The notes under the pieces: model-generated
The model's database searches: none
Told to the model about the DNA's origin: nothing
Seen by the model: the letters and a program-made list of their open reading frames with translations, nothing else
Origin: an uncultured Chloroflexia bacterium
GTDB taxonomy: Bacteria > Chloroflexota > Limnocylindria > Limnocylindrales > CSP1-4
DNA length: 64,000 bases
NCBI GenBank assembly: GCA_963776395.1
Contig: CAVZML010000006.1
Location: forward strand, 197,312-261,311
Reading direction: 5' to 3'
In this document: piece by piece, positions 51,636-54,600 of the stretch
Layout of the letters: the number at the start of each line of letters is the position of its first letter
Numbering within the stretch: the first letter of the stretch is position 1
Position numbers and translations under genes: made by a program

Positions 51636-54600
51636 TCAGCTGCAGCCGCTCGTGCTCCCGCAGTTGAGGCACTTGTAGCAGGAGCCGTTGCGGACCATGA
51701 TCGAGCCGCATTCGGCGCAGGACGGGGCGTCGGCCTGGGCGGCGAAGGCCACCTTCGCGGTGCCGCCGCCGAGCGTGGAACCGCCGAGTGACGCGGCGAT
51801 CGACGCGAGCCCGTTGCCCTTGCCCGTTGCCGGCCGCCTGACCGTTGGCGGCGCCGTTCGTTGCGACGACCGCCATCTCGCCCCTCGCCACGGAGACCGG
51901 GGCGGCAGCACGTCGCGGCGGGAGCCGCAGAACCCTTGGCAGCATCGCCGGGACGGCGCGGGTGCCGGACCGGAGCGGCCACCGGAGCGGTCACCGCCTC
52001 GGACTGGGCGGTGATGCCCTCGTCCGCGCGCGGCTTCAGGGCCGAGGCCCCGAACGCGACCGGCGCGTCCGCCACCACCTGCGAGCGCTCCTGGAGCCCG
52101 AGCGACGCCCGGTCCTCGCCCGGCAGGAACCGGCTGCCCAGCCAGCGGAAGATGTAGTCAACGAGCGACTTGGCGATCGGGATCTCCGGGTTGCCGGTGA
52201 AGCCGGAGGGTTCGAACCGCACGTGGGCGAACTTGTTGACCACGTCCTTCAGCGGGACGCCGTACTGGAGCGCCAGGCTGACCGAGGTCGCCAGCGTGTC
52301 CATCAGGCCGCTGATCGTGGAGCCTTCCTTCGCCATCTTCAGGAAGATCTCGCCGGGCTGCCCGTCCGGGTACAGGCCGACGGTGATGTAGCCCTCGTGG
52401 CCGGCGATCTCGAACTTGTGGGTGATCGCGGTCCGCTCCGACGGAAGGCGGCGGCGATGCGGGCGGGTGGCCTCGACCTGGGCGGACGCGAGCTGCCTGC
52501 GGAGGCTCTCGATCGTGTCCCTGTCCTCGGCCGAGCCCTCGTCCTTCTTCTTGCCGGTGCTGAGGGGCTGGCTGCGCTTGGACCCGTCGCGGTAGATCGC
52601 GATGGCCTTGAGGCCCTGCTTCCAGCCCTCGAGGTAGACCGTCTCGATCTCCTCGGCGGTGGCCTTCTCGGGCATGTTGACGGTCTTGCTGATGGCGCCC
52701 GAGAGGAACGGCTGGACGGCGCCCATCATCCGGATGTGGCCCATGTAGTGGATCGACCGCTCGCCGTTGACGGGCTTGAACGCGCAGTCGAAGACCGGCA
52801 GGTGCTCGCTCCGGAGGCCGGGCGCGCCTTCGATGGTCTCGCGCTCGTTGATGTAGGCGAGGATCTCCTCGACCTGGACCGGGGTGTAGCCGAGCTTGCG
52901 CAGGGCCGCCGGCACGGTCTGGTTGACGATCTTGAGGTAGCCCTCGCCGACCAGCTTCTTGTACTTGATGAGCGCGATGTCGGGCTCGATGCCGGTCGTA
53001 TCGCAGTCCATCATGAAAGCGATGGTGCCGGTTGGAGCCAAGACCGTGACCTGTGCGTTGCGGAAGCCATTCGCTGTGCCGAGCTCCAGGACCTCGTCGT
53101 AGAGGTGGCGGACGTTGTCCAGCATCTCCTGCGGGACGCCATTCGCAGGCAAGGCGTACGCGGCATCGCGGTGCTTGGCGATGACGGAGGAACGGCTCGC
53201 GGTTGATGTCGTAGTCCACGAATGCGCCGCCGTGGTCGCGGGCGACGATCGAGCTCTGGCGGTAGGCCTCGCCGTGCATCAGTGCGGTGATCGCGCCGGC
53301 GTAGTTGTGGCCCTCGTCGGAGTCGTAGGCGAGGCCGCGGTTCATGAGCAGGGCGCCGAGGTTGGCGTAGCCCAGGCCGAGCGGCCGGAACCTGTGGCTG
53401 TTCTCCTCGATCTTCGCGGTCGGGTAGCTGGCGTTGTCGATGAGGATTTCCTGAGCCGTGATAGTCACCTTGGCCGCGAAGCGGAAGGACTGAACGTCGA
53501 ATTCGCCGTCTTCCTTCACGAACTTCATCAAGTTGATTGAAGCCAGGTTGCAGCTTGTGTCATTAATGAACTGAACTCACTGCACGGATTAGTTGCATAA
53601 TGCCGTCGCGCTAGTTGAAACTGGATTCCAGTCGTTGATCGTGGTGTCGTACTGGATGCCCGGGTCGCCGCAGACGTGGGCCGCGTCGGCCATCCTGCGG
53701 AAGATGTCGCGGGCCTTGTACGTGCCGGCCGGCTGGCCGTCGGTGACCTCGTGGGTCTGCCACTCGGCGTCACGCTCGACGGCCCGCATGAATTCGTCGG
53801 TCACGCGGACGCTGTGGTTGGCGTTCTGGAAGAAGACGCTCCCGTAGGCCTCGCCGGTGAACGAGGCGTCGTAGCCCTGCTCGATGAGCGCCCAGGCCTT
53901 GCGCTCCTCGTTCGCCTTGCTCTCGATGAAGTCGATGACGTCCGGATGGTCGACGTCCAGGATGACCATCTTGGCCGCGCGCCGGGTCTTGCCGCCGCTC
54001 TTGATCACGCCCGCGAACGCGTCATACCCGCGCATGAAGCTCACGGGGCCCGAGGCGATGCCGCCGCCCGACATCCTGTGCCTTGGACGAGCGGATGGGG
54101 GACAGGTTCACGCCCGCGCCCGACCCGTACTTGAACAGCATGGCCTCGGTCTTGGCGAGGTCCATGATGCTGCTCATGTTGTCCTGCACCGAGTTGATGA
54201 AGCACGCGGAGCACTGCGGCTTCGCCTCGATGCCGACGTTGAACCAGACCGGCGAGTTGAAGCTCATCTTCTGGTGGACCAGGAGGTGGGTCAGCTCGGC
54301 CTGGAACGCAGCGAGGTCCTCGTCCGTGGCGAAGTAGTGGTTGGTCTCCGCCCACGCCGCGATGGTGTTGACGACGCGGTCGATGAGCTGCTTGACGCTG
54401 TGCTCGCGCTCCGGCGTGCCGACGTGGCCGCGGAAGTACTTGCTGACCACGACGTTCGTGGCGAGCTGGCTCCAGGACACGGGGACCTCGACGTCCTTCT
54501 GCTCGAAGACGGTCTTGCCGGACTCCGAGGAGATGCCCGCCGTGCGGTACTCCCAGGCGATCTCGTCGTAGGGATGGACGCCCGGCCGGGTCCACCGGCG

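Follow-up and report, generated by a model that had tools for sequence, protein, structure and literature searches.

Why does a ribonucleotide reductase gene in which nearly all codons end in G or C switch abruptly to A/T-ending codons over its catalytic finger loop? The gene in question is nrdJ, encoding a class II (B12-dependent) ribonucleotide reductase (RNR), which lies at 51636-54765 on the minus strand of a 64,000-nucleotide stretch (hereafter the window; GenBank assembly GCA_963776395.1, contig CAVZML010000006.1, positions 197,312 to 261,311) from an uncultured soil Chloroflexia bacterium of the order Limnocylindrales. We find that the A/T-rich patch arose by gene conversion, as a genuine tract some 110-190 bp long within the sequence for the NrdJ finger loop, and we consider it likely, though not proven, that the tract is the footprint of an intein/homing-endonuclease cycle.

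The gene was identified from its translations, from a reading corrected for insertions and deletions (indels), from PF02867 and from matches in PDB. PF02867, the RNR large-subunit barrel, gives three collinear matches (C6:249903-251521, E-values down to 5.7e-65), and the closest PDB matches of the product are the B12-dependent RNRs 7b9p and 1xje. Once the indels are allowed for, the finger-loop motif N-x-C-x-E and a second Cys 11 residues further on read NPCSEF...DTSCNLAS and align to 7b9p; the radical/catalytic role of the finger-loop Cys is established knowledge for RNRs. The domains PF08471 and PF12637, specific to B12-dependent RNRs, are present in near-identical proteins such as P0002; with regard to a C-terminal Cys4 ribbon, the C-terminal region of the window gene encodes ...CAECGSIMVRNGSCYKCLNCGSTSGCS. 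No second PF02867 gene was found in the genome, and among class I/II RNRs the assembly has no other large subunit.

The patch stands out by its composition. The genome (4.39 Mb) has a GC content of 0.713 and nrdJ as a whole one of 0.67, against 0.400 at 53521-53580, 0.483 at 53581-53640 and 0.493 over 53440-53650; the figures of 40% and 48% given for the first two intervals in an original prediction, made from the DNA letters alone, thus return as 40.0% and 48.3% on recomputation, with the genome at 71.3%. The minimum 100-nt GC of the entire 64-kb window (0.43) falls at 53500-53599, and 100-nt windows as low as this make up 0.019% of the genome. GC content at third codon positions (GC3), computed along the gene after setting the indels aside by comparison with the intact gene of a relative (G003), is 0.94 overall and 0.93-1.0 almost throughout. 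It drops below 0.75 across 53654-53520, reaches a minimum of 0.27 at 53624-53579, and then continues in a tail of about 0.8 to about 53445. From WNPV to NLMKF, 17 of the 34 informative codons end in G or C, for which the binomial probability at p = 0.94 is 1.5e-12. The GC3 profile of the whole gene agrees with the previously described switch to A/T-ending codons and back on both sides, and the peptide previously assigned to the patch is read both in the translations and in the corrected reading.

Within the patch, a core and a tail can be told apart. The core of the recombinant tract (53520-53632, minus strand; GC3 0.27-0.73) encodes what we term a 'type B' finger loop, coincides with a break in identity, and is common to the window and two sister species, G003 and L030. 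The 3' tail (53445-53519, minus strand; GC3 about 0.8) holds more window-specific A/T-ending codons than in the sister species: six codons that are A/T-ending (AT3) in the window alone lie in the patch, in this tail, vs three among the other 201 codons compared. These six private codons suggest that a further event took place, or that some local process is still under way.

Most members of the genus carry a different finger loop, 'type A', written in GC-rich codons, and it is from this background that the window clade departs. Sliding-window identity to 11 type-A members of the genus falls from 87-98% to 44-60% at 53641-53611 and is recovered by about 53480, the core standing at 44-71% vs about 90% in the flanks, whereas identity to G003 and L030 holds at 78-93% along the gene. 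The same tract is present, with intact frames, in G003 (a 90-contig assembly) and L030 (MFD04716.bin.2.316), and the three share many A/T-ending codons, in the run AAT CCA GTT.CA A.T AGC GCA CGG CA. TA. GC. AC. AAT CCG TGC. In a phylogeny of the flanking sequence the window groups with G003 and L030 (support 0.935), and this clade is nested among type-A genomes; when only the patch is used, the three sit on a very long branch with G022, the only other type-B member of the genus, whose patch is GC-rich. The tract therefore has a phylogenetic history that differs from that of its flanks, and its 5' boundary is sharp: nrdJ is a mosaic. Since identity to type-A alleles drops while that to G003 and L030 persists, and since the clade is nested, the tract dates to the common ancestor of the three species. 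The original prediction had envisaged a gene-conversion tract from a low-GC donor, of which the tract is borne out and the low-GC donor is not, none having been identified. It had also held that the same codons in close relatives would speak for an ancestral lineage feature and against a foreign tract; G003 and L030 do share them, yet this merely shifts the event to their ancestor, given that the clade is nested among tract-free alleles. As a separate observation, another member of the genus, G008, has three copies of this nrdJ segment that are 82-84% identical (C8:316010-317110; C22:567-1669 and 3533-4633), which may be a strain mixture or paralogy.

The core of the tract encloses two points at which relatives carry inteins and at which the window gene is empty. 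One of these, NP|C (before the Cys of N-P-C-x-E), lies at 53585|53584 on the minus strand, and in G010, a member of the same genus, a 370-residue LAGLIDADG intein is inserted exactly here, starting CVTADT..., ending ...VVHN and followed by CSEYMF. The other, DT(A/S)|C, lies 11 codons downstream at 53553|53552 (minus strand), where L134 and L139 hold an insertion of 392-393 residues between DTA and CNLAS. G003 itself has a 433-residue LAGLIDADG intein at APTG|T (window 53028|53027) and a 384-residue insertion at QCSA|C, and altogether relatives hold inteins at five nrdJ sites. The domain scan covered three insertions (NP|C, DTA|C, APTG|T), all of which match PF14890 (intein splicing) and PF14528 (LAGLIDADG_3) above the Pfam cut-offs. 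No in-frame Hint/intein splicing domain is found in the window nrdJ, which is to say that it is not an intein-containing gene; the NP|C and APTG|T inteins have no match in the window genome (G000), and the window nrdJ is collinear with the spliced G003 sequence. Two empty intein homing sites thus fall within the main patch. A third, APTG|T, is the centre of the one further GC3 dip of the gene, a minor dip (0.73) at 53071-52997 on the minus strand over NGFRNAQVTVLAPTG|TIAFMMDCDT. The codon run TTG GCT CCA ACC GGC within this minor dip is also present in a low-GC allele, L073.

Full-length matches to the NP|C intein occur in 28 of 401 genomes of the order, rising to 36 of 401 genomes, and 16 of 44 genera, when weaker matches are included (about 30% identity, some of them in other genes). 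At 59-75% identity (intein plus flanks), it is also found in proteins labelled Nitrospirota, Methylomirabilota, Acidimicrobiia and Binatia, and copies this similar in other phyla indicate an intein that is horizontally mobile, with inter-phylum transfer. Several of its relatives (P0175, P0199, P0210, P0232, P0138) sit in NrdJ proteins of very different architecture (Nitrospira, Methylomirabilota, Acidimicrobiia). Two further arrangements are worth recording: in L134 (G361:C116, about 7394-9715) and P0192, two LAGLIDADG inteins are only 11 codons apart (NP|C and DTA|C), with the 11-residue extein CSEFMFLNDTA between them, and L023 (G003:C7:30000-36000) has, besides its QCSA|C and APTG|T inteins, an extreme A/T-ending patch at the empty site GVIK|SGGKT.

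The coincidence of patch and intein sites recurs across the order. With the spliced G003 protein as the reference, we aligned the codons of 127 distinct nrdJ genes from Limnocylindrales to it and defined an extreme patch as a 12-codon run of which at least half end in A or T, using 123 of the 127 genes (four lower-GC3 genomes were left out, as was the variable linker). Of 41 extreme patches, 28 overlap one of the five intein insertion points (NP|C 18, DTS|C seven, a site designated c six, and sites a and b one each), compared with a mean of 5.7 and a maximum of 16 under random placement (20,000 permutations), and conserved nrdJ motifs that host no intein have almost no extreme patches. This count and its permutation replace order-wide mean AT3 peaks, which were partly withdrawn as evidence, the peak at site c being inflated by GAT codons: at this site (window about 53009-53001) GAT encodes the two Asp of MMDCD in 40-59% of Limnocylindrales genes whose GC3 is otherwise saturated. 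Type-A (L078, L093) as well as type-B alleles have low-GC patches, and the synonymous codons used differ between lineages, which argues that such patches arose repeatedly.

Intein-bearing alleles also stand out in the synonymous codons next to the junction. At the C-extein positions +2, +3, +4 and +8, 35-52% of codons are A/T-ending in intein-bearing alleles vs 7-13% in empty ones (Fisher p 6e-5 to 2e-3), and AT3 beside the junction has a mean of 0.16 in the former vs a median of 0.04 in the latter (Mann-Whitney p = 5e-5). The window carries the intein-associated states AAT (-2), AGT (+2) and AAT (+8). The best intein-bearing flank is just 82% identical to the tract, and none is equally AT-rich. 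At site c, intein-bearing and empty flanks differ weakly (mean AT3 0.14 vs 0.10, p = 0.02), with no convincing single codon; here the unusual flank TTT AGA AAC GCA CAA is common to intein-bearing (L165, L166) and intein-free (L073, L081, L136) alleles, L165, L166 and L136 being alleles of one genus.

With inteins at NP|C and DT(A/S)|C inside the patch, and with patches clustering at intein sites order-wide, a scar of intein co-conversion, which the original prediction had listed among its explanations, becomes the best-supported reading, albeit short of proof. Two of its parts we infer, namely an endonuclease cut as the trigger of this event, and the origin of the A/T-rich codons. Under such a mechanism, a homing endonuclease would have cut an empty site and the break would have been repaired from a foreign copy of nrdJ, which could have been an intein-less allele or else an intein-bearing one, with the intein lost later. 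In both cases the repair would have copied a short stretch of the donor around the cut. The tract itself replaced the GC-rich type-A sequence typical of the genus with another Limnocylindrales variant written in A/T-ending codons. More narrowly, a cut empty site may have been repaired, or an intein removed, using a foreign intein-less template; alternatively, the target may have been rewritten so as to escape the endonuclease. For the window clade recombination is required in any case, given that a dozen residues switch together to the type-B consensus.

Several observations weigh against a link to intein homing. It is intein-free alleles that have the most AT-rich patches (AT3 up to 0.52, vs a maximum of 0.25 next to inteins), and a plain scar after local intein loss does not predict extreme patches in intein-free alleles. 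Intein sites are also the most conserved motifs, and part of the association could be indirect; moreover, the sequences share ancestry, so that the Fisher and permutation P values are optimistic, and the order-wide AT3 peak at site c is partly due to the widely shared GAT codons. In the window gene, the intein sites QCSA|C and GVIK|S show no GC3 dip. Nor did any intein-bearing allele with the exact tract emerge, those of the same genus having GC-rich type-A flanks. The donor lineage that the original prediction had proposed to look for was likewise not found: 50,697 phage records contained no donor match, viral contigs gave only 47-55% identical proteins and no match to the pattern, a degenerate 47-nt pattern matched nothing in metagenome contigs, and the best match to the tract among 400 Chloroflexota genomes was only 76-78% identical. 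The relatives of the NP|C intein in other phyla were considered as a source of the type-B tract and ruled out, their flanks being type-A-like. Among the public runs searched none holds the patch (word shares of at most 0.18, from conserved flanks only). In contigs of four public soil/sediment runs, matched at 85% or more, depth is zero over 53573-53614 and almost nil from 53552, and the same contigs show loose ends at 53628 that come from other taxa.

The absence of a donor among these searches, and the concentration of the most AT-rich patches in intein-free alleles, leave room for a homing-resistant 'empty site' allele. We tentatively suggest that AT-rich patches at empty intein sites may be 'immune' alleles that the endonuclease no longer cuts. 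Nearly every silent position of the target would then have been rewritten after endonuclease attack or intein removal, whether through patch repair off a foreign template or through GC-to-AT mutation associated with the break. Immune alleles would explain the presence of extreme patches in intein-free genes of a family where inteins circulate.

Ordinary homologous recombination between lineages, unrelated to inteins, is an alternative that we regard as unlikely but not negligible; flanking conservation would permit the exchange of a short finger-loop tract with another nrdJ, from Limnocylindrales or elsewhere, and the AT-rich codons would reflect the donor's usage. It would accommodate the mosaic and the switch from type A to type B, both of which are observed, as well as the interspersion of the two types over the gene tree, the commonness of the type-B motif (more than 1000 matching proteins) and the failure to find this tract in an intein-bearing allele. 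It does not, however, account for a roughly fivefold over-representation of extreme patches at intein points when other conserved motifs are nearly patch-free, nor for the position of the gene's only other GC3 dip on another intein site, and in none of the lineages sampled is codon usage over the whole gene as AT-rich as in the patch. The AT-richness might instead have arisen in situ, if synonymous GC-to-AT changes clustered around the cut as a result of repeated rounds of cutting and repair, or of a local relaxation of GC pressure, while selection purged residue changes and favoured uncuttable targets. The differing synonymous choices of lineages, the occurrence of patches in type-A (L078, L093) and type-B alleles alike, their more extreme composition in empty alleles than beside inteins, the six private AT3 codons in the window patch (as opposed to three in the other 201) and the missing donor would all be in keeping with this. 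Yet it cannot explain why at least a dozen residues switched together to type B, or why the 5' boundary is sharp; furthermore, in L078 12 of 12 adjacent synonymous sites are changed, far beyond what escape from cutting would need, and singleton AT3 enrichment is not significant over the trio (p = 0.10). As a full explanation of the window tract we therefore judge it improbable.

Other explanations draw on the frameshifts, or on the location of the patch. In the present assembly the nrdJ reading frame is split into at least five frames, and its conserved part has four indels relative to the intact G003 gene, with more in the C-terminal linker. Two form the compensating pair in the patch reported earlier, which comparison with G003 places at 53610-53607 (an extra base within cgcg) and 53571/53570 (a missing base, TTCAG-TTC vs TTCAGCTTC in G003, after which the original frame is restored); between them the other frame is read and reaches TAA. 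The remaining two lie outside the patch, a +1 at 54079 (GGCACAGG vs GGC-CAGG) and a -2 at 53184-53185 (CCG--TCATC vs CTGCGGATCATC), all four being given on the minus strand. When the open reading frames of a complete relative (G006) were searched against the assembly, 9 of 55 genes showed frame changes, or about 0.19 per kb, which is an undercount given that close compensating pairs are missed. The assembly comprises 13 contigs with an estimated completeness of only 73%, and many related genomes in the collection are long-read metagenome-assembled genomes (MAGs) from MFD (Chloroflexota, Limnocylindrales). Considering these points together with the gene's standing as the sole RNR and the intact frames of the sister species, the frameshifts, including the +1/-1 pair, are most likely long-read consensus or assembly errors, and not biology. 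Three of the four indels lie in or beside short palindromic or methylation-type motifs of the intact relative (GGCCAGG, GCGC, GGATC), a context that would fit systematic nanopore consensus errors at modified bases, as an impression from four sites.

That nrdJ is a decaying pseudogene, with patch and frameshifts alike as products of decay, was rejected on the grounds of the sole RNR and the genome-wide frameshift noise. It finds some encouragement in at least five frame disruptions in 3.1 kb, above the roughly 0.19 per kb seen elsewhere, but can scarcely be reconciled with a GC3 of 0.93-1.0 and motifs that are all intact outside the patch, or with the same patch in intact genes of sister species. 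An error-prone assembly with two indels inside the patch might equally evoke a chimeric consensus, as the original prediction had suggested, formed by recruitment of another organism's reads at a conserved stretch. A chimera can be excluded in practice: the same tract, with shared A/T-ending codons and intact frames, is found in separately assembled genomes of two further species, near-identical proteins are encoded on further contigs (e.g. P0002, P0006, P0015), and in the four public metagenomes no contig that might have been recruited matches the patch core at 85% or more. Selection on synonymous sites, be it for a translational pause at the catalytic loop, for mRNA structure, or for an embedded RNA or promoter, would suit the location of the patch in the catalytic loop and the few positions at which A/T-ending codons occur order-wide (at site c, GAT at +7 and +9). 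However, about 85% of relatives encode the same residues at a GC3 of 0.93-1.0, the A/T codons are not conserved, and no Rfam match to the patch exists on either strand, which makes a selected feature very improbable.

Elsewhere in the genome, other stretches of unusual composition occur. Long stretches with a GC3 of only 0.45-0.7, in which many 100-nt windows have 47% GC or less, are found at C6:1-43,000 (outside the window), C3:252,000-264,000 and C8:393,000-440,000, and these could be foreign islands, or mis-joined or mis-binned sequence. Close to a contig end, the interval C4:1695-1916 holds an A-rich run (minimum GC 0.15) that would translate as long poly-Lys and has the look of an artefact of assembly or adapters.

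The wider interest of the locus lies in the visibility of such events. In a GC3-saturated genome a foreign or rewritten tract can be seen by composition alone, making past homing-endonuclease activity detectable in genes that contain no element. If empty sites with AT-rich patches are indeed immune alleles, the resistant stage of the homing cycle would be recognisable in GC-rich genomes by base composition, and this at several sites within a single essential gene. With five sites, and with empty, occupied and possibly resistant alleles in one bacterial family, nrdJ offers a testable system for the intein homing cycle. There is also a practical implication, in that a low-GC patch with frameshifts in a long-read MAG need not mean contamination, and such frameshifts are not to be read as pseudogenisation.

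The catalytic motifs of RNRs are known intein hosts, and the window nrdJ differs from known NrdJ hosts in being without any intein; inteins of phage RNRs are listed in PMC3653736. The closest parallel to a tract that outlasts its element comes from the homing group I intron of plant mitochondrial cox1, in which an exonic co-conversion tract can persist as a footprint after intron loss (PMC3192709); the nrdJ tract would be its equivalent for an intein. Both cases involve a short, foreign and mostly synonymous tract beside a homing-endonuclease site, attributed in cox1 to double-strand-break repair. In nrdJ, by contrast, the element class is an intein in a bacterial chromosome, the tract extends on both sides, about a dozen residues are changed, and the tract is marked by base composition; in addition, the most extreme nrdJ tracts are in element-free alleles, with no element-bearing allele known to have the same tract. 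For haloarchaeal MCM inteins, at least the adjacent extein codon is sometimes carried into the new host, and resistant empty alleles have been discussed (PMC10643990), yet that case concerns single flanking codons and is backed by experiment, whereas the nrdJ tract covers 35-60 codons and is deduced by comparing sequences. Repar and Warnecke 2017 (PMC5378118) report raised polymorphism where exons border mobile mitochondrial introns. That case and nrdJ are alike in that host-gene diversity is concentrated beside insertion sites of mobile self-splicing elements, and differ in that the former concerns introns of fungal mitochondria and within-species gradients of single-nucleotide polymorphisms, whereas nrdJ shows compositional patches in empty sites. 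The nrdJ tract adds an example to a known type of feature; its puzzling aspect, the extreme patches of empty alleles, would be of particular interest if it reflected resistance to homing.

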